NCBI GenBank assembly: GCA_964619775.1
Contig: CAZUFB010000004.1
Coordinates: 2,225-53,253, forward strand
Source of the DNA: an uncultured Coriobacteriaceae bacterium
GTDB taxonomy: Bacteria; Actinomycetota; Coriobacteriia; Coriobacteriales; UMGS124
Direction: 5' to 3'
Length of the DNA stretch: 51,029 nt
Every line of letters begins with the position of its first letter. Within the stretch, counting starts at the first letter, position 1. Shown here one piece after another: positions 3,831-51,029 of the stretch. A model generated the notes under the pieces. That model had not been told where the DNA came from. It was given only the letters and a program-made list of their open reading frames with translations, and ran no database searches. The translations under genes and the position numbers were made by a program.

Positions 3831-3907
3831 GGTGCCTCCCTGATGGCCGTCGTTGTCCGGTTGCGGGCCGCCTGGGCCTGGGGCGCGGGCGGCGGGTCCG
3901 TACATTC

Positions 3908-4007
3908 TAGTACCGAACGGGCCGGGCGCGCACCGCACCCGGCCCGGCAACAAATAATACCCGCCACCCCCGCGGCGAGGCGCGCGGCTGTATTGCGGAC
4001 TGCCCTA
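3908..4007 (-). repeat. TA-flanked inverted-repeat element, diverged copy (forward orientation on minus strand)
   Basis: On the minus strand it begins TAGGGCAGTCCGCA, 13/14 identical to the 5' end of the 50646 copy. It is ~100 nt long, starts with TA and ends with TA. It contains a 9-bp GC hairpin (3918-3926 / 3938-3946) followed by TTCGG. The interior is poorly alignable to the other copies. Confidence 0.5.
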
Positions 4008-6250: not shown

Positions 6251-6937
6251 ATGAACATACTGGTAGTCGAGGACGAACCGAACCTGGCCGACGCGCTGGC
6301 CCACATCCTGCGGGAGAACCGTTGGAACGTCGACGTCGTCGACAACGGCAAGGACGGTCTCGCCTATGCGGAAAGCGGCATGTACGCCGCCGTCGTGCTC
6401 GACATCATGCTCCCCCAGCTCGACGGCTTCGAGGTGTGCCGGCGGCTGCGCGAGGAAGGCGTCTCCACGCCCGTGCTCATGCTCACCGCGCGCTCCGAGA
6501 CCAAGAGCAAGGTCCAGGGCCTCGACGCCGGGGCCGACGACTACCTCACCAAGCCGTTCGACCCCGAGGAGCTGCTTGCGCGCCTGCGCGCCCTCACCCG
6601 TCGCACCGGCGAGGTGGTGCTCGACACGCTTACCTTCGGCGACCTGACGCTCAACCTGGTCGACATGACCCTCACCTGCTCGGGCGAGCGCAGCGTGCGG
6701 CTCTCGCAGCGCGAAAGCGCGGTGCTCGAGCTGCTCATGCGCGCGCCGCAGACGGTCTTCAGCAAGTCGACCCTGCTCACGCGCGTGTGGGGCACCGGCG
6801 GGGAGGCCGGCCTCAACAACGTCGAGGCGTACATCTCGTTCCTGCGGAAAAAGCTTGCGTTTTTGGAATCGCGTGTCACTATTAGCACCATACGCATGCT
6901 CGGCTACCGCCTCGACGACACCGAGGCGGCATCCTAG
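6251..6937 (+). CDS. OmpR/PhoB-family response regulator
   Basis: MNILVVEDEPNLADAL receiver domain with the DIMLP phospho-Asp context, plus a C-terminal winged helix (..VEAYISFLRKKL..GYRL). Confidence 0.9.
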   Translation: MNILVVEDEPNLADALAHILRENRWNVDVVDNGKDGLAYAESGMYAAVVLDIMLPQLDGFEVCRRLREEGVSTPVLMLTARSETKSKVQGLDAGADDYLTKPFDPEELLARLRALTRRTGEVVLDTLTFGDLTLNLVDMTLTCSGERSVRLSQRESAVLELLMRAPQTVFSKSTLLTRVWGTGGEAGLNNVEAYISFLRKKLAFLESRVTISTIRMLGYRLDDTEAAS

Positions 6938-7038
6938 GGCACCCCGCAAAACGCCGCGCCTCCGTTGGGCCCGGGCCCGCACCCCCCTGTGCGAAGAACC
7001 CCCGCACACCCCGCGCGGCAGCTTCACGGATTGCCCTA
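6935..7038 (-). repeat. TA-flanked inverted-repeat element, copy in reverse orientation
   Basis: The reverse complement begins TAGGGCAATCC, identical over 11 nt to the 8342 copy. It shares ..CAACGGAGGCGCGGCGTTTTGCGG.. and ends GCCCTA. It fills the RR-HK spacer, and its CCTAGG end contains the RR stop codon. Confidence 0.65.
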
Positions 7039-7090: not shown

Positions 7091-8344
7091 GTGCTCAAGA
7101 AGCTCAGGTTCAAGATCGTCGCCATCATCATGGCGATATGCGCGGCCATGCTCGCCTGCGCGTTCGTCGCCATCATGGCCGTCACCTCGTCGAGCGTCCA
7201 GGCCCCTTTGCTACGTGAGCTCAAAAGGGCCGTGGAATGGGGTCCCGAGCAGGAGATAACGGTCGTCATCGGCCGTCACGACGGACCCGACCCGTCCTCG
7301 GAGAGCTCCGACGGATCGGTGCCGGTGGCCGTGGTGGCCGTGGTGGACGGCACCTTGGTCTCCTACAACGACGACTTCCTTACGAGCATGGACGAGACCG
7401 TGCGCACGCTGGCGGTCTCCGAGGCCCTGTCCGCCGAGGCCGACGAGGGCCTGCTGTGGGACATCGGGGTGTTCTTCCTGCGCGACGTGGGGGCCAACAG
7501 CGTGGTGCTCGCGTTCGTAGACGCCAGCGCCTACCTCGCCACGATGCGCAGCACCGCCCTGGGCACCTCCGCCGTGCTGCTGGCCGCCCTGCTGGTGTTG
7601 TTTGTGCTGAGCATCTTCTTGGCCCGCGTCATCACGCGCCCCGTCAAGAAGGCCTGGGACACCCAGGCGCAGTTCATCGCAGACGCCTCCCACGAGCTGA
7701 AAACGCCCCTCACGGTGATCCTCGCCAACATCGACATTCTGCTTCGCAACGAGTCGGGCAGCCTGCGCGAGGAGCAGCGAAAGTGGATCGCGGGCATCGG
7801 CAGCGAGGCGCGGCGCATGAAGGGGCTCGTCGAGGAGATGCTCTTCCTTGCCCGCAACGAGGACGAGGACGCGGCGGCCCACCGCGACGGGGACCCCCCC
7901 GAATGCGACCTGTCGGCCCTCGTGCGCCAGGCCAGCCTCACCTTCGACGCCGTGGCTTTCGAGGCTCAGGTGGAGCTTGTCGACGACATCGAGGACGGGG
8001 TGCGCGTGCGCGGCAACCGCGAGCAGCTCGAACGGCTCGTAAAGTCGCTTATGGACAACGCGGTTAAGTACGCGGGGGCCGGCGGCCGCGTCAAGGTGTC
8101 GCTCGAACGCCGCAAAGGGAACCCCGTGCTGCGCGTGAACAACACCGGCGAGCCGATAGCCCCCGGGGACATCCCGCACGTCTTCGACCGCTTCTGGCGC
8201 AGCGACAAGGCCCGCGGCGGCGGGGCGACGGGGAGCTACGGCCTGGGGCTGGCGATTGCCAAGAGCATCGCCGAGGCGCAGGGCGCCCGCATCTCGGTGA
8301 CGAGCTCGCGCGAGGAGGGGACCACGTTCACGGTGGCGTTCTAG
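7091..8344 (+). CDS. sensor histidine kinase
   Basis: Two TM segments flank a ~130-aa extracytoplasmic region. HisKA box FIADASHELKTPLT, then HATPase N/G boxes (NAVKYA, GYGLGLAIAK). GTG start lies after GGAGG. Confidence 0.9.
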   Translation: MLKKLRFKIVAIIMAICAAMLACAFVAIMAVTSSSVQAPLLRELKRAVEWGPEQEITVVIGRHDGPDPSSESSDGSVPVAVVAVVDGTLVSYNDDFLTSMDETVRTLAVSEALSAEADEGLLWDIGVFFLRDVGANSVVLAFVDASAYLATMRSTALGTSAVLLAALLVLFVLSIFLARVITRPVKKAWDTQAQFIADASHELKTPLTVILANIDILLRNESGSLREEQRKWIAGIGSEARRMKGLVEEMLFLARNEDEDAAAHRDGDPPECDLSALVRQASLTFDAVAFEAQVELVDDIEDGVRVRGNREQLERLVKSLMDNAVKYAGAGGRVKVSLERRKGNPVLRVNNTGEPIAPGDIPHVFDRFWRSDKARGGGATGSYGLGLAIAKSIAEAQGARISVTSSREEGTTFTVAF

Positions 8345-8445
8345 GGCAATCCACGGAATTGCCGAGCGGGGCGCACGAGGGCGATGCGTACACGAGGTGC
8401 GTGAGCCCGAGCGCAACGAAGCTCGGCGTTTCTGCGGATCGCCTC
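8342..8445 (+). repeat. TA-flanked inverted-repeat element, forward copy
   Basis: About 77% identical by hand alignment to 50646-50751. Its first three nt are the HK stop codon. It contains hairpins 8345-8363, 8371-8402 and 8407-8426, the last followed by CGTTTCTG. Confidence 0.8.
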
Positions 8446-30478: not shown

Positions 30479-30591
30479 TAGAAAGGTTTTCCGTGGAACA
30501 CTGACCTTCAGGCGGAGGGTAAGGCTCAAGGTCTTCTGCCCGCGTCCCCGCACGGCACGGCCGCACGGAGGCGCGGGCTGCGGAAACGCTA
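30479..30591 (+). repeat. TA-flanked inverted-repeat element, longer diverged copy
   Basis: Begins TAG....TCCGTGGAA (compare TCCACGGAA and TCCGTGAA in other copies). It contains GGAGGG and a 12-nt block ACGGAGGCGCGG identical to the 6935 copy. It ends TGCGGAAACGCTA, and that CTA is the stop of the 30589 gene. Confidence 0.55.
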
Positions 30592-46046: not shown

Positions 46047-47015
46047 CTACTCGTCCTCGAGCAGGGCGCGGACGTCCTTGAGCACCTGGGCGATATCGCC
46101 CTTGACGGCCATGCCCTTGTCCTCGATCTGCCGGGGCAGGAACGCGTAGGCGTCGTTCACACCGATGTAGAAGGCGTGCGGCAGGCTGTAGGTCAGGCGC
46201 CAGAACGGCTCCTGGATGAACATCGGGGTCATGCGCCCCACGCCGAGCTCGACGAGCAGCAGGTTTCGGTCCGCGTTGTGCTCGATATAGCGCGACGCCT
46301 TCCCGTACTCCTCCCGGTACCTGCTTCCCTGGAGGAAGTTGCCGTAGCCGCGCACCCAGGGAAACGCCTCGGCGCCGCAGCGGGGGCAGCGCGGGACAAG
46401 GCTTTCGGGGATGCTCGTCCCCTCGCCCATGGCCTCGACCATCTCCTGCACGGACTCGACGGCGTCCCAGGTGTCGTCGCAGCAGCAGCGCGAGCACTGG
46501 AAGAACCGGTGGTCGCCCTGGATGGCGGCGACCTTGTCCGCAGGGTAGAGCTTCGAGAACTGCGTGTCCTGATTGGTGGTGAGGGCGAAGAAGTCCTTGC
46601 CCTCAAGGATGGCGTCGAGGTCGCGGTAGGGCTCGCGGACCGGGGCGTTCAGCGTGGTGTCGAGGAACGTCGCGAGAAACGCCCACTTCTCCCCAATCGT
46701 GTCCCACTTGCGGAAGCTTCCGTCGAAGGCGCCCTTGATGCCGTACCTGTCGGCGAACTTGCCGAAGTGCCTGCGGAAGGACGGCGTGTCCCCGTAGTAG
46801 AAGTCGCCGCCCCCGGCCGCCGAGAGGCCCGAAGCGCCGCCTATAAGGACGCAGTCCGCCTCGCGGACCGCCTGCGCAAACCGGGCTATCTGCCCGTCAT
46901 AGGGCAGCGGCTCCTTGCGCGAGAGCTCGTAGGGAGTCCCGCCCGCCGCGTAGGTGCCGTAGTGGCGCTCGTAGCTCATCTGGCTCTGTGTGACGAGATC
47001 GTCGTAGATGCCCAT
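46047..47015 (-). CDS. sirtuin (SIR2)-like NAD-binding protein, motif-complete paralogue
   Basis: The five sirtuin blocks are recognisable: IGGASGLSAAGGGDF, ALTTNQDTQF, IQGDHRFFQCSRCC, VPRCPRCG, LLLVELGVG. 322 aa. Confidence 0.65.
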   Translation of the reverse strand: MGIYDDLVTQSQMSYERHYGTYAAGGTPYELSRKEPLPYDGQIARFAQAVREADCVLIGGASGLSAAGGGDFYYGDTPSFRRHFGKFADRYGIKGAFDGSFRKWDTIGEKWAFLATFLDTTLNAPVREPYRDLDAILEGKDFFALTTNQDTQFSKLYPADKVAAIQGDHRFFQCSRCCCDDTWDAVESVQEMVEAMGEGTSIPESLVPRCPRCGAEAFPWVRGYGNFLQGSRYREEYGKASRYIEHNADRNLLLVELGVGRMTPMFIQEPFWRLTYSLPHAFYIGVNDAYAFLPRQIEDKGMAVKGDIAQVLKDVRALLEDE

Positions 47016-47200
47016 AGCCTGCCTTCCGTTTCATTCGTTCCCTGCGTTTCCGCCGGTGTCCTCGGAAAACACCTCGTCGCGCACCCACGGCGCCCGCTTC
47101 GTCGATCAGCCGCACAGCACGGTCGACCGCGCCCAGCAGGGCAGAACCCGAAGGTCCCTCGACGCCGAGGTGCTGCGCGTACGACCCCCCAGCGCGCCTC

Positions 47201-48052
47201 TCAAGGGCGCACCTCCCGCGCCAGCGCGACCAGGGATTGCGCCAGGTCGCCCACGACCGCCACGGCGCGCTCCCCCATGCCGGCGGGCAGAGCGGCCTCC
47301 TCGCGGTTGAAGGCCGCATAGCGGGCGCGGGGCGCCGCGGCGGCGTACTCCATGACCGGGAGCTTGACCGCCCGGTTGCGCTGGCCGACGCCTAGCTCGA
47401 GGACGAGCACGCAGGCGTCGCAGAATCGCTCGAGGAACGCCCGAAACCGGTCGGACTGCGCCCGGTAGCGGGCCGTGGCGGCCAGGGCGCCGGTGTCGTC
47501 CGCGGCGACGTCGAGCAGGGCGCCGCAGCGCGGGCAGCGGGGCAGCAGGGCGTCCGGCACCGGCCCGCGGCGCGCCGGCCCGAGCATCGGCTCGACAAAG
47601 GGCAACGCGTCGAAGTCCTCGTCCGAGCAGCCCGCCGTGCAGCGCAGGCGCGCGTAGCTCCCCTCGGTCTCGAACAAGGATGCGGGGTCGAAACCGGCCC
47701 GCTCAAACCGCCCGTTGCAGTTGCAGGTCACCGCGAACCGCGGCTTGCCTGCGGTGAGCGCGTCGAGCGCACGCATGACAGGCGACGGCCGGTAGCTGCG
47801 ATATCCGTAGTCGACGGCGCGGGCGAGGAACGCCCACCGCTCGCCGGAGCTCCCCCAGCGCGCCGCGAGTCCCTGCAGGATGCAGGACAGGCCGTGGCTG
47901 CGGTTGAGATCGCCGAACGCGCCCATGAACGCCCCGTCGCACGCAAACTGGTTGTAGCCGTCTGCGATGTCGAACCCGTTGCCCGCCGCGACGACCACCG
48001 CGTCGGCCTCGCGCAGCATCCGAGCCGCGCGGTCGAGGGACCGTCCGTCCAT
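47201..48052 (-). CDS. sirtuin (SIR2)-like paralogue with degenerate active-site motifs
   Basis: Collinear with the 46047 gene: VVVAAGNGFDIADG, AVTCNCNGRF, TEGSYARLRCTAGC, LPRCPRCG, VLVLELGVG. The His of the HG/DH box is Tyr. ATG at 48052 follows GGAGGGGAGGG. Confidence 0.6.
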   Translation of the reverse strand: MDGRSLDRAARMLREADAVVVAAGNGFDIADGYNQFACDGAFMGAFGDLNRSHGLSCILQGLAARWGSSGERWAFLARAVDYGYRSYRPSPVMRALDALTAGKPRFAVTCNCNGRFERAGFDPASLFETEGSYARLRCTAGCSDEDFDALPFVEPMLGPARRGPVPDALLPRCPRCGALLDVAADDTGALAATARYRAQSDRFRAFLERFCDACVLVLELGVGQRNRAVKLPVMEYAAAAPRARYAAFNREEAALPAGMGERAVAVVGDLAQSLVALAREVRP

Positions 48053-48117
48053 GCCGCCCTCCCCTCCTCCCTGCACCATATGCCCAGAACACCGTCGAAG
48101 CCTCCGGGCGTATGGCA

Positions 48118-48144
48118 TTGCTGTTGTTTTCTTAACGACAGCAA
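48118..48144. promoter_or_regulatory. candidate operator: 11-bp inverted repeat in the divergent sirtuin-like / Rrf2 promoter region
   Basis: TTGCTGTTGTT-ttctt-AACGACAGCAA (one mismatch). A related half-site pair GCTGTT-N11-AACAGC at 48175-48197 overlaps a TATACT -10-like hexamer (48180-48185). Confidence 0.35.
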
Positions 48145-48254
48145 ATACTAGCAGGGTGTCCGATGGTGCGCAAGGCTGTTATACTTTCTCCAACAGCAGC
48201 AAACCATCCCGCGTCGTGCGCCCGTGTGCGACGAAAGCGACGGAGGCGACATCG

Positions 48255-48695
48255 GTGCCCTATTCGACCAAACTGAGCGACGCCCTGCACATCCTGGTGT
48301 ACATCGAGACCGGGAAGGGCGGCGACCTCTCGAGCGACGCCATCGCCCGCAGCCTGCAGGCCAATCCGGCCTCGGTGCGGCAGCTGATGGGCAAGATTCG
48401 CAAAGCCGGGCTGCTGACGAGCGTCACCGGCCATGCGATGCCGAGCCTGGCGCGCAGCCCCTGCGACATCTCGATGCTCGACGTCTACCGGGCGGTCGAG
48501 GGCGACAGGCCCCTGCTGCACCTCGACACGCACATCAACCCCGCCTGCGGCGTGGGCGTCAACGTGCAGGTCGTCATCGGGGAGCGCTTCGGCGACGTGC
48601 AGCAGGCGGCCGAGCGGGCCATGGCCGAGATCTCGCTCGCCGAAATCGTCGCGCAGTTCCGCGCGCGCGTGGAGGGAGGTGCGCGGGCCAAGTAG
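48255..48695 (+). CDS. Rrf2-family transcriptional regulator
   Basis: ..KLSDALHILVYIE....LSSDAIARSLQANPASVRQLMGKIRKAGLL.. winged-HTH. It lacks the three-Cys cluster-ligand pattern of IscR/NsrR. GTG start lies 8 nt after GGAGG. Confidence 0.8.
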   Translation: MPYSTKLSDALHILVYIETGKGGDLSSDAIARSLQANPASVRQLMGKIRKAGLLTSVTGHAMPSLARSPCDISMLDVYRAVEGDRPLLHLDTHINPACGVGVNVQVVIGERFGDVQQAAERAMAEISLAEIVAQFRARVEGGARAK

Positions 48696-50078: not shown

Positions 50079-50117
50079 ATAGACAAACAGCCTGCCTGCA
50101 CCGCGATGCAGGCAGGC
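50079..50117 (-). terminator. intrinsic terminator downstream of the HIT gene / in the ackA leader
   Basis: Perfect 11-bp stem GCCTGCCTGCA / TGCAGGCAGGC (50090-50117) with a 6-nt loop, followed on the minus strand by TGTTTGTCT. Confidence 0.6.
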
Positions 50118-50247
50118 CACGGCAATTCAGTCATTGTGGACTATCGTGCACGGATGCGCAGGCGCCAAGGGACGCTATTGGGCGGATGGACGCCCGGCAC
50201 GGGATGAAAGAGCATCGCCGGCGCACCCTCCACATCCGCCCCATGAC

Positions 50248-50586
50248 TTACAGCAGGCCCTCGTCCATCTTGACGCCGCCGAGCACATGGCAGTGCAGGT
50301 GCATGACGGTCTGGCCGGCGTCGGCCCCGGTGTTCATGATGAGGCGGAAGCCCCCCTGGTCGACGCCCGTAAGGCGGGCGACCTCCACCGCGGCCTCGAG
50401 CAGGCCGCCGAGCACGTCGGCAGGCACGCCGTCGGCGACGTTGGCATAATGCCCCTTGGGAACCACGAGCACGTGCACGGGAGCCTGGGGGTTGGCGTCC
50501 TTGAAGGCGCAGAAGCGGTCGTTCTCGTAGACGACCTCGGTGGGGATCTCGTGGTTGGCAAGCTTGCAGAAGATGCAGTCTTCCAT
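50248..50586 (-). CDS. HIT-family (histidine triad) protein
   Basis: MEDCIFCKL.. and HLHCHVLGG (HxHxHxx); 112 aa. The upstream part of the track ORF is not coding. Confidence 0.9.
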   Translation of the reverse strand: MEDCIFCKLANHEIPTEVVYENDRFCAFKDANPQAPVHVLVVPKGHYANVADGVPADVLGGLLEAAVEVARLTGVDQGGFRLIMNTGADAGQTVMHLHCHVLGGVKMDEGLL

Positions 50587-50645
50587 GTCCGTACGTCCTT
50601 TCTCAAACGGGTCCGCCGCCGTCGACCGAAAGGCCCCGGCGGCCT

Positions 50646-50751
50646 TAGGGCGGTCCGCAGAACTGCCGAGCAGGGCGTGCGAGGGCGCTGCCGTACAAAA
50701 GGCATGCAAGCCCGGAAGCAACGACGCTCGGCGTTTTTGCGGATCGGCCTA
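50646..50751 (+). repeat. TA-flanked inverted-repeat element, forward copy
   Basis: About 77% identical to 8342-8445. TIRs are GGGCGGTCCGCA and TGCGGATCGGCC, flanked by TA on both sides. The 3' CTA is the xseB stop codon on the opposite strand. Confidence 0.8.
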
Positions 50752-50997
50752 GCTCAGCGTGGTGTCGCGCTCGTCGGTGTCGACCTCGATCTCGCCCATC
50801 AGGGCGCTCACCTTCTGCTCCGCGTCGGTGAGGCGGGCGCGCAGCGAGGCGAGCAGCTCGACGCCGCGCTGGTAGAGGTCAAGGCTCTCCTCAAGCTCGA
50901 GCTGGTTGGACTCGAGAGCCTTGACGATGGCCTCGAGCTCGGCGTTGGCCTCGTTGTAGGTCAGCTCGCCGACGGGCTTGCGCTGGGTCTGGTCCAT
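50749..50997 (-). CDS. xseB: exodeoxyribonuclease VII small subunit
   Basis: 82 aa; ..ELEAIVKALESNQLELEESLDLYQRGVELL.. is the typical XseB helical hairpin. Confidence 0.85.
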   Translation of the reverse strand: MDQTQRKPVGELTYNEANAELEAIVKALESNQLELEESLDLYQRGVELLASLRARLTDAEQKVSALMGEIEVDTDERDTTLS

Positions 50998-51029
50998 GTT
51001 AGCGTCTCCTTGTCAGTTGCGCCGCGCGC

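Follow-up and report, generated by a model that had tools for sequence, protein, structure and literature searches.

A TA-flanked palindromic repeat at the xseB stop codon of an uncultured Coriobacteriales bacterium, probably a copy of a MITE-like element

Results

The locus and its features

The window, by which we mean the whole stretch of 51,029 nucleotides that was analysed, comes from an uncultured, Coriobacteriales/Atopobiaceae-like host of 70% GC, whose nearest named homologues are 'Coriobacteriales bacterium' MAGs, Olsenella, Parolsenella and similar. Positions 50646-50751 lie between two genes of the minus strand, and the interval is composed as follows.

50248-50586, minus strand: HIT-family gene (PF01230), called as 112 aa, with the RBS GAGAAAGGAC
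50646-50647, no strand: distal TA of the duplicated target, which with T50645 forms a minus-strand TAA, read as the relic of the original xseB stop
50648-50749, plus strand: repeat body, 102 nt, given for the strand with TAGGGC... and the G-U-rich fold
50648-50671, plus strand: left arm
about 50672-50725, plus strand: conserved core
50726-50749, plus strand: right arm
50750-50751, no strand: proximal TA of the duplicated target, which with C50749 forms the present xseB TAG on the minus strand
50749-50997, minus strand: xseB ORF (exonuclease VII small subunit, Pfam PF02609), its stop common to the element end

The TAG stop of xseB corresponds to the plus-strand CTA at 50749-50751, as the initial annotation had recognized, and C50749 is at once the terminal base of the element and part of this stop. 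On the minus strand, 59 nt separate the element from the HIT gene that follows it.

The plus strand of 50646-50751 reads TA-GGGCGGTCCGCAGAACTGCCGAGC...GCTCGGCGTTTTTGCGGATCGGCC-TA, and the ends TA-GGGCGGTCCGCA...TGCGGATCGGCC-TA that had been described for it are present. The 102-nt body is an imperfect palindrome with a TA at each flank, giving an element of ~104 bp with imperfect terminal inverted repeats (TA-GGGCRRTCCRC...GYGGAYYGSCC-TA). Its terminal 12-mers, GGGCGGTCCGCA and the reverse complement GGCCGATCCGCA, match at 10 of 12 positions, and about 24 of 26 arm positions are paired when the flanking TA pairs are counted. The plus strand folds into a single long bulged hairpin of -63.9 kcal/mol (z -6.07, equalled by none of 200 shuffles), the complementary strand into a weaker one of -50.6 kcal/mol (z -3.6), and the covariance model (CM) R1 scores the copy at 79.6 bits (E 7e-16).

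The plus strand carries a T-run, GCTCGGCGTTTTTG, and no credible gene that it could terminate, in agreement with the initial annotation. The further description of this end as a terminator-like 3' hairpin is not supported: the T5 run pairs with AGAA inside the outer helix, and the stem that precedes it encloses 54 nt. Since a promoter/terminator consensus scan of 50100-51029 found no site of either kind, and since the T5 run is antisense to xseB and HIT and paired in the outer helix, an intrinsic terminator, which calls for a GC-rich stem with a loop of 3-8 nt and a U-run immediately behind it on the transcribed strand, was rejected. Promoter-like sites adjoining the copies were likewise not found. 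A scan of the window with Rfam 15 gave no gathering-level match, and the best hit at E up to 10 was mir-2576 (15 bits, E 8.7), the other copies being matchless; a known ribozyme or sRNA was rejected on this ground.

The element has no coding capacity. The only ORFs across it are a 70-aa plus-strand ORF that overlaps the HIT start and an unused upstream extension of HIT, and the translated copies have no 5-residue word in common in any frame. The extension opens at an in-frame TTG within the repeat and yields a 157-aa ORF (50248-50721, minus strand) comprising HIT and 45 additional residues; gene callers do not use it and choose the 112-aa form. Similar extensions of ORFs into the repeat could be mis-annotated elsewhere.

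Copies of the repeat in the same genome

The window was searched by nhmmer with the element itself, a three-copy profile and a core-only profile, and by an unfiltered CM scan; a generic repeat finder run on the whole window was uninformative, being swamped by GC-rich chance matches. Every nhmmer profile and the CM returned the same three full copies, 50646 (plus), 8342 (plus) and 6935 (minus), with CM E values of 1e-12 to 1e-18 and nhmmer E values of 1e-28 to 6e-23 for the three. A 15-kb contig of the same genome (L048), which extends 9 kb past the window, contains two more. Besides the copy at xseB, the matches are as follows.

8342-8445, plus strand: second full copy (nhmmer E 1e-28; CM 90.6 bits; fold -59.2, z -5.0)
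6935-7038, minus strand: third full copy, in the response-regulator/histidine-kinase spacer (nhmmer E 6e-23; CM 62.4 bits; fold -62.9)
L048:4241-4355: fourth copy, 3 nt after the TerC stop, flanked as GAC-TA...TA-GAT
L048:6705-6806: fifth copy, which starts from the TA within the TAA stop of RNase D, with degenerate ends and the flanks TA/GG
3981-4007, minus strand: possible remnant, a 27-nt 5' arm (TAGGGCAGTCCGCAATACAGCCGCGCG) that begins at the trmD TAG stop (nhmmer E 0.22, model positions 1-27)

The relationship of the 8342 copy to the one at xseB, which had been proposed from the sequence, was confirmed also with the element alone as query (nhmmer E 4e-13). The TA of this copy is that of the histidine-kinase TAG stop, and its distal TA is now TC. 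Two of the five copies that the initial annotation counted in the window were not recovered as copies. The site by the gene ending at 30589 gave zero matches with nhmmer or the CM and looks like an ordinary GC hairpin. At trmD, the match to the 5' arm stands and may represent a remnant, but a full copy is not there: the unfiltered CM scan gave no match at 3981-4007, and the spacer folds no better than shuffles (z -1.2). The trmD-lepB spacer also contains, at 3905-3980 (minus strand), a strong 12-bp GC hairpin (GGGCCGGGTGCG...CGCGCCCGGCCC) that adjoins the arm match and is unrelated to the repeat core.

The same-genome total is thus 5 copies in ~60 kb, with a GC content of 62-76%. A TA is found at both flanks of 50646, 6935 and L048:4241-4355, and TA/TC at 8342. 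Both L048 copies fold about as well as shuffles (z -1.6 and -2.5), and the family therefore has decaying members. The argument that pairing between copies would be hard to explain if the element were a decaying insertion is accordingly weak, and the 24% divergence of the two best copies consists mostly of wobble-type single changes. Within the species the element is found in 8 of 8 contigs with identical XseB; one of these, the 98.9% identical strain L008, differs by three changes within it.

Two other features were observed near the L048 copies. A near-perfect GC-rich palindrome (GGGCCGCGCCCC...GGGGCGCGGCCC) at L048:4468-4517, between convergent TerC and diacylglycerol-kinase-like genes and ~110 nt from a decayed repeat copy, probably acts as a terminator in both directions. 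A GGGTATAA-containing box lies ahead of the Zn-peptidase/xseA genes and is conserved in all sampled relatives, with the form GGGGTATAAGG in the window species and the sister species; it is probably the -10 region of the Zn-peptidase/xseA operon promoter and occurs at the following positions.

L048:6865-6880: GGGTATAA-containing box
L058:228-240: the same box
L032:3488-3500: the same box
L044:7336-7346: the same box

Empty sites in relatives

Relatives were retrieved via homologues of HIT and of the histidine kinase. In the closest of them (L042/L043; HIT 94% aa, xseB 93.8% nt, HIT 90.6% nt), xseB ends in ...CTGAGC TAA AGCACGG, followed by a 72-bp spacer without the element, and the blastn alignment of the window with L042 stops exactly at the stop-codon TA. 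The minus strand of the window reads GAGC-TA-(GGCCGATCC...GGACCGCCC)-TA-AGGCC at this point. The xseB genes of further relatives end in GAGC TAG G (L030, L032) or GAGC TGA C (L044), all without the element, and the orthologous xseB-HIT spacer is element-free in four sister lineages altogether.

Similar differences were seen at the other two full copies. The regulator/kinase spacer of the window reads ...CATCC-TA-element-TA-A, then 51 nt and the GTG start, and that of L026 (kinase 77% aa) reads ...GCG-TAG, 51 alignable nt and GTG, with no element; in L027-29 this spacer is 36 bp and also lacks the element. After the kinase, the window has TTC-TA-element-TC-GGCGGC and L027 has TTC-TAG-GCGTCG, again with no element. 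Occupancy differs in both directions: L042 carries a copy after HIT, at a place that is empty in the window. The loci of relatives with 79-89% HIT or 62% kinase identity, which together span ~140 kb and include much redundancy, contained no copy.

Read against these sequences, the xseB layout of the window is the one expected if an element entered a TAA stop at its TA and these 2 bp were duplicated, although formally an asymmetric element carrying one TA of its own would leave the same pattern, and the two cannot be told apart. These comparisons bear out the proposal of TA-targeted insertion at stop codons, since filled sites read TA-element-TA and the empty sister sites at xseB, regulator and kinase have a single TA, with precise junctions. 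They do not support the accompanying proposal that the element creates stop codons: element-free orthologues end at the same codon (TAA, TAG or TGA). Because the element-free relatives already hold the stops, the stops predate the insertions, and the element at most respells them to TAG.

The comparison with relatives gave two further observations. Between pta and ackA, the window contains two minus-strand genes without a Pfam match (46047-47015 and 47201-48076) and a plus-strand Rrf2 regulator (48255-48695), and these three genes (window 46047-48695) are absent in the otherwise syntenic L030, L040 and L044. In L040 (HIT 83% aa), ~14 tandem GCACCTC heptamers at positions 1-110 lie directly upstream of HIT and occupy the place of the window's repeat element and spacer.

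Target sequence and association with stop codons

The target context was C-TA-R in 5 of 5 same-genome copies (CTAA, CTAA, CTAG, CTAG and CTAA, with the C on the gene side). A codon-usage gene model of the window gave 48 genes at 92% coding, with 31 TAG, 12 TGA and 5 TAA stops (for example at 6935, 8342, 10035, 12301, 35841 and 39614). TA dinucleotides are scarce (695 observed against 1147 expected); with the elements masked, gene bodies contain 589, stop codons 36 and the remaining non-coding sequence 62. There are just 16 CTAG sites in 51 kb, and 9 of them fall at stops.

Outside gene bodies, stop codons thus account for 36 of 98 TAs (37%) and for 11 of 22 CTAR sites (50%). When in-gene insertions are assumed to be selected out, the probability of finding 3 of 3 copies at stops is 0.05 for all TAs and 0.125 for CTAR sites, and that of finding at least 4 of 5 is 0.064 and 0.19, respectively. 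The association with stops is therefore about as expected from TA/CTAR targeting in a compact GC-rich genome in which in-gene insertions are lost to selection, and an enrichment beyond this expectation (P ~0.05-0.19) is not supported. One same-genome copy, L048:4241-4355, is found 3 nt past a stop and not within it. The idea that the element caused the TAG-rich stops of the lineage was rejected, since TAG is equally the commonest stop in relatives whose sampled loci lack copies (L030, 5 of 5; L040, 6 of 8; L032, 6 of 8).

Conservation of pairing and strand bias

The 50646 and 8342 copies are 76% identical, and their helices had been thought to retain pairing through double substitutions. This holds for a single pair: of 39 consensus pairs, 24 are unchanged, 14 have one-sided changes and just 1, with U-A in place of C-G or the reverse, has truly changed on both sides. 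The one-sided changes comprise 9 Watson-Crick/G-U swaps, 3 A-C pairs in 8342 and 2 that repair a mismatch of 50646. Differences are slightly rarer in paired columns (16 of 78) than in unpaired ones (10 of 29).

In a CM alignment of 12 distinct copies, 88.8% of the cells were paired and 9 of 23 pairs showed two-sided change; the covariation score was reached by none of 500 shuffles, and partners slid out of register paired in 21-53% of cases. Two points limit these figures: the alignment had been fitted to this structure, and its sequences are related to one another. The pairing is also biased to one strand, with a G-U:A-C ratio of 23:6 in the inner module, and the base of the apical stem has conserved tandem U-G/G-U pairs. 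The TAGGGC strand folds better than its complement by 10-18 kcal/mol in the three copies of the window; this preference is reversed in the L042 copy (-39.0 versus -34.1) and absent in the decayed copies.

The fraction of stem pairs that are not Watson-Crick, 6-10 of 39, about matches the neutral change of ~10-15% per lineage that we estimate from the 6-9% coding divergence to the nearest element-free relative. These results indicate that the family has inherited the hairpin as a genuine property; RNA-level selection on every inserted copy is not required by this evidence.

Orientation and transcription

The copy at xseB is oriented against both of its neighbours, as had been noted. Of 10 copies, 9 have the strand with TAGGGC and the G-U pairs antisense to the gene that they abut, and 6 of 7 sites do so after tandem and possibly orthologous copies are collapsed (two-sided P = 0.125), so this orientation is usual for the family and not peculiar to the 50646 copy. 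The assumption that the better-folding strand is the transcribed one was rejected, because most copies have that strand antisense and L042 shows the opposite preference.

In the window form, a T-run follows the inner stem on the TAGGGC strand (GTTTTTG, GTTTCTG, GTTTTG). In the likely operons, xseB-HIT and regulator-kinase, polymerase meets the strand without a U-run, which fits selection against the terminating orientation inside operons, as far as two cases allow. The xseB-HIT message would include the element in the form of the strand that folds less well (~-50 kcal/mol), 59 nt before the HIT start. Since no U-run follows the hairpin on the transcribed strand, read-through to HIT is not expected to stop.

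The sister-species form and the conserved core

At least 5 copies were found in the sister species. L026 has two head-to-tail tandem copies right after the kinase stop (L026:1736-1902), L042 has one right after the HIT stop, and head-to-tail tandem pairs also occupy the RNase D/Zn-peptidase spacer in L058:1-175 and L057:1-130. L058 and L026 derive from one sample, and the Zn-peptidase of L058 shares 89% aa identity with that of the window species. The L058/L057 copies share the orientation of L048:6705-6806 and likewise lie ~60 nt from the conserved GGGGTATAAGG box, and these copies may go back to a single old shared insertion.

The sister-species cores, GGCG-TGCG-GAGGCGATGCGTAC-loop-GTACGTGAGCCTCC-GCGGAACG, are clearly homologous to those of the window. 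Their arms have other sequences that are still complementary (GAAATGGGCTGTGGC/GCCACGGCCCATTTC and GAAACTGCCGTCAC/GTGACAGCAATTTC); the L026a and L042 copies have GAAAT...ATTTC arms, lack the TAGGGC termini and carry TA at no more than one end. On the sense strand of the gene, the sister-species hairpin is followed by TTTCTTTTTG or TTTCTTATTTTAC, a combination that resembles an intrinsic terminator.

The inner core is therefore better conserved across species than the termini, which is chiefly what a plain MITE model leaves unexplained. A pattern of the core was not found in viral contigs, nor was a copy found in plasmids by blastn. Patterns of the 5' arm gave only chance matches in genome and metagenome contig collections; because the arm is variable and the core conserved, these searches say little about the range of the family.

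Discussion

Origin of the element

We consider it likely that 50646-50751 is a copy of a non-autonomous, TA-targeting MITE-like element of ~104 bp. Bacterial MITEs are shorter than 200 bp and have terminal inverted repeats, terminal TA, a target duplication and a stem-loop between their 5' and 3' ends (PMC2229807; PMC5896051). The repeat is non-coding and below ~300 bp, has terminal inverted repeats, occurs in dispersed copies and is polymorphic for insertion; at xseB, regulator and kinase, filled sites have TA on both sides (TC at the distal side at the kinase) and empty sites a single TA.

The insertion would postdate the split of the species from its closest sampled relative. The element would have entered the xseB stop, which read TAA at the time, at its TA and in the context C-TA-A, with duplication of the TA; the terminal G of the element would rebuild the stop as TAG, and the old TAA would be kept at the far end. 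Because both ends of the element begin with G, the stop would be rebuilt in either orientation and the protein would be unaffected. In a genome of 70% GC and 92% coding, the TAs of stop codons make up a third to a half of those that are harmless to genes. Mobilisation would presumably occur in trans, by cut-and-paste, through an IS630/Tc1-mariner-type transposase encoded elsewhere in the genome. None of the 48 window genes has a Pfam match to a transposase, all being housekeeping genes or uncharacterised ORFs without a match; in the ~60 kb of genome covered by the window Pfam scan and the precomputed Pfam labels of L048 there is no transposase, RAYT or TnpA, and no full-length IS with matching ends was seen in the ~60 kb read. 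Further points against a MITE are that a core better conserved than the termini is unusual if a transposase reads the termini, and that double-strand cut-and-paste does not explain a pairing bias to one strand.

Both of these would fit if the repeat were primarily a functional structured RNA, for example a portable 3'-end hairpin/terminator or a small antisense RNA, whose core is selected and whose spread is secondary. Pairing is kept throughout the 12 distinct copies, between species the arms were swapped wholesale, and remained complementary, around a conserved core, and the tandem U-G/G-U pairs and the excess of G-U over A-C point the same way, as do the location of all copies at gene 3' ends and the terminator-like sense-strand hairpins of the sister species. 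We nevertheless regard this origin as unlikely. Most copies have the better-folding strand in antisense position and L042 shows the opposite preference, two copies have decayed, the orthologous spacers of close relatives do without the element, and there is neither an Rfam match nor a promoter-like site adjoining the copies. The pair counts also depend on the structure-fitted alignment of related sequences, and palindromes can keep their pairing as well through template switching or selection for transposability.

A REPIN/REP-like or IS200/IS605-derived palindrome, moved as an ssDNA hairpin by an HUH enzyme (RAYT/TnpA-Y1), would account for the same core conservation and, through recognition of one strand, for the tolerance of G-T on that strand; the extragenic position at gene ends and the ~100-nt hairpin also fit. 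To our knowledge, however, REP/RAYT and IS200/IS605 elements make no target duplication, and the sites here have TA on both sides when filled and one TA when empty. The arms pair with each other and not with themselves, they are not preceded by a GTAG-type tetranucleotide, and no RAYT/TnpA gene lies in the ~60 kb read. A REP/RAYT unit was rejected on the TA flanks and the arms, and we judge the broader explanation improbable. An integron attC site was rejected as well, because the ends are TAGGGC.../...GCCCTA and not the RYYYAAC/GTTRRRY core sites, and because the host genes have housekeeping roles, are scattered and face either way, unlike arrays of co-oriented cassettes. That no real repeat family exists, and that the features arise by chance in a GC-rich genome with many TAGG stops, is suggested by the two of five earlier-claimed copies that dissolve and by the ease with which high-GC sequence gives spurious repeats; the nhmmer and CM E values, the precise presence and absence relative to relatives and the fold z values of -5 to -6 refute it, leaving it next to no likelihood.

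A different view of what is conserved takes the 55-nt core, GGGCG-ATGCGTAC-loop-GTRCGTG-AGCCC with its tandem U-G/G-U pairs, as the unit under selection and the terminal repeats as secondary, which we think rather doubtful. The core may be a structured RNA or ssDNA module with interchangeable arms, either TAGGGC-type and TA-flanked or GAAAT...ATTTC with U-runs. If so, it would serve as a portable 3'-end/terminator cassette, or as the hairpin recognised by a mobilisation system not yet described, and its antisense position relative to the abutting gene in 9 of 10 copies would be explained.

As a MITE-like element, the repeat is a new family of an already known kind. A quick full-text literature search found no description of a MITE in Coriobacteriia, and the repeat adds such a family to an uncultured, very GC-rich Coriobacteriales/Atopobiaceae-like gut lineage. 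It offers a worked example of how TA-targeting elements gather in the stops of GC-rich genomes, where TA is scarce and a terminal G rebuilds the stop. For annotation, stops and gene 3' ends by such repeats are reliable, and ORFs that enter the repeat, such as the TTG-extended HIT, are not. With regard to mechanism there is nothing new unless the conserved core proves functional.

Comparison with known systems

Intrinsic terminators resemble the repeat in having a GC-rich hairpin near the stop and a T-run after the inner stem, and the sister variants have a sense-strand hairpin with a T-run. At 50646, in contrast, the T-run is antisense and inside the outer helix, the stem encloses 54 nt, and the scan makes no call. 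REPIN/BIME are likewise extragenic hairpins of ~100 nt at gene ends, with structure conserved more than sequence and a one-strand pairing bias; the repeat differs from them in its TA duplication, in arms that are not self-palindromic REP units, and in having no GTAG-type 5' tetranucleotide and no RAYT seen in ~60 kb of genome.

ERIC and Correia elements have orientation-dependent effects on mRNA. Correia/NEMIS of Neisseria and ERIC/IRU of enterobacteria share with the repeat a terminal TA and 5' and 3' ends that pair as a long hairpin. They are also co-transcribed in either orientation and have length variants with a common core (PMC2229807), and NEMIS undergo RNase III processing (PMC2229807). 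The repeat has no sequence similarity to them, belongs to Actinomycetota, Coriobacteriales, and contains no IHF site or promoter that we recognised.

Compared with RUP of Streptococcus pneumoniae, which goes with IS630-Spn1, the repeat is GC-rich (62-76%) and not AT-rich, its core is better conserved than its termini, and sister variants lack the TAGGGC termini; no partner IS was seen in the ~60 kb of genome read. IS630 duplicates TA within CTAG (PMC2577343 Table 1, citing Tenzen and Ohtsubo 1991). The repeat shares with RUP a non-coding length of ~100 bp, terminal inverted repeats and a TA at both ends, and with RUP and IS630 MITEs a C-TA-R target like the CTAG of IS630, dispersed intergenic copies and presence or absence among relatives.
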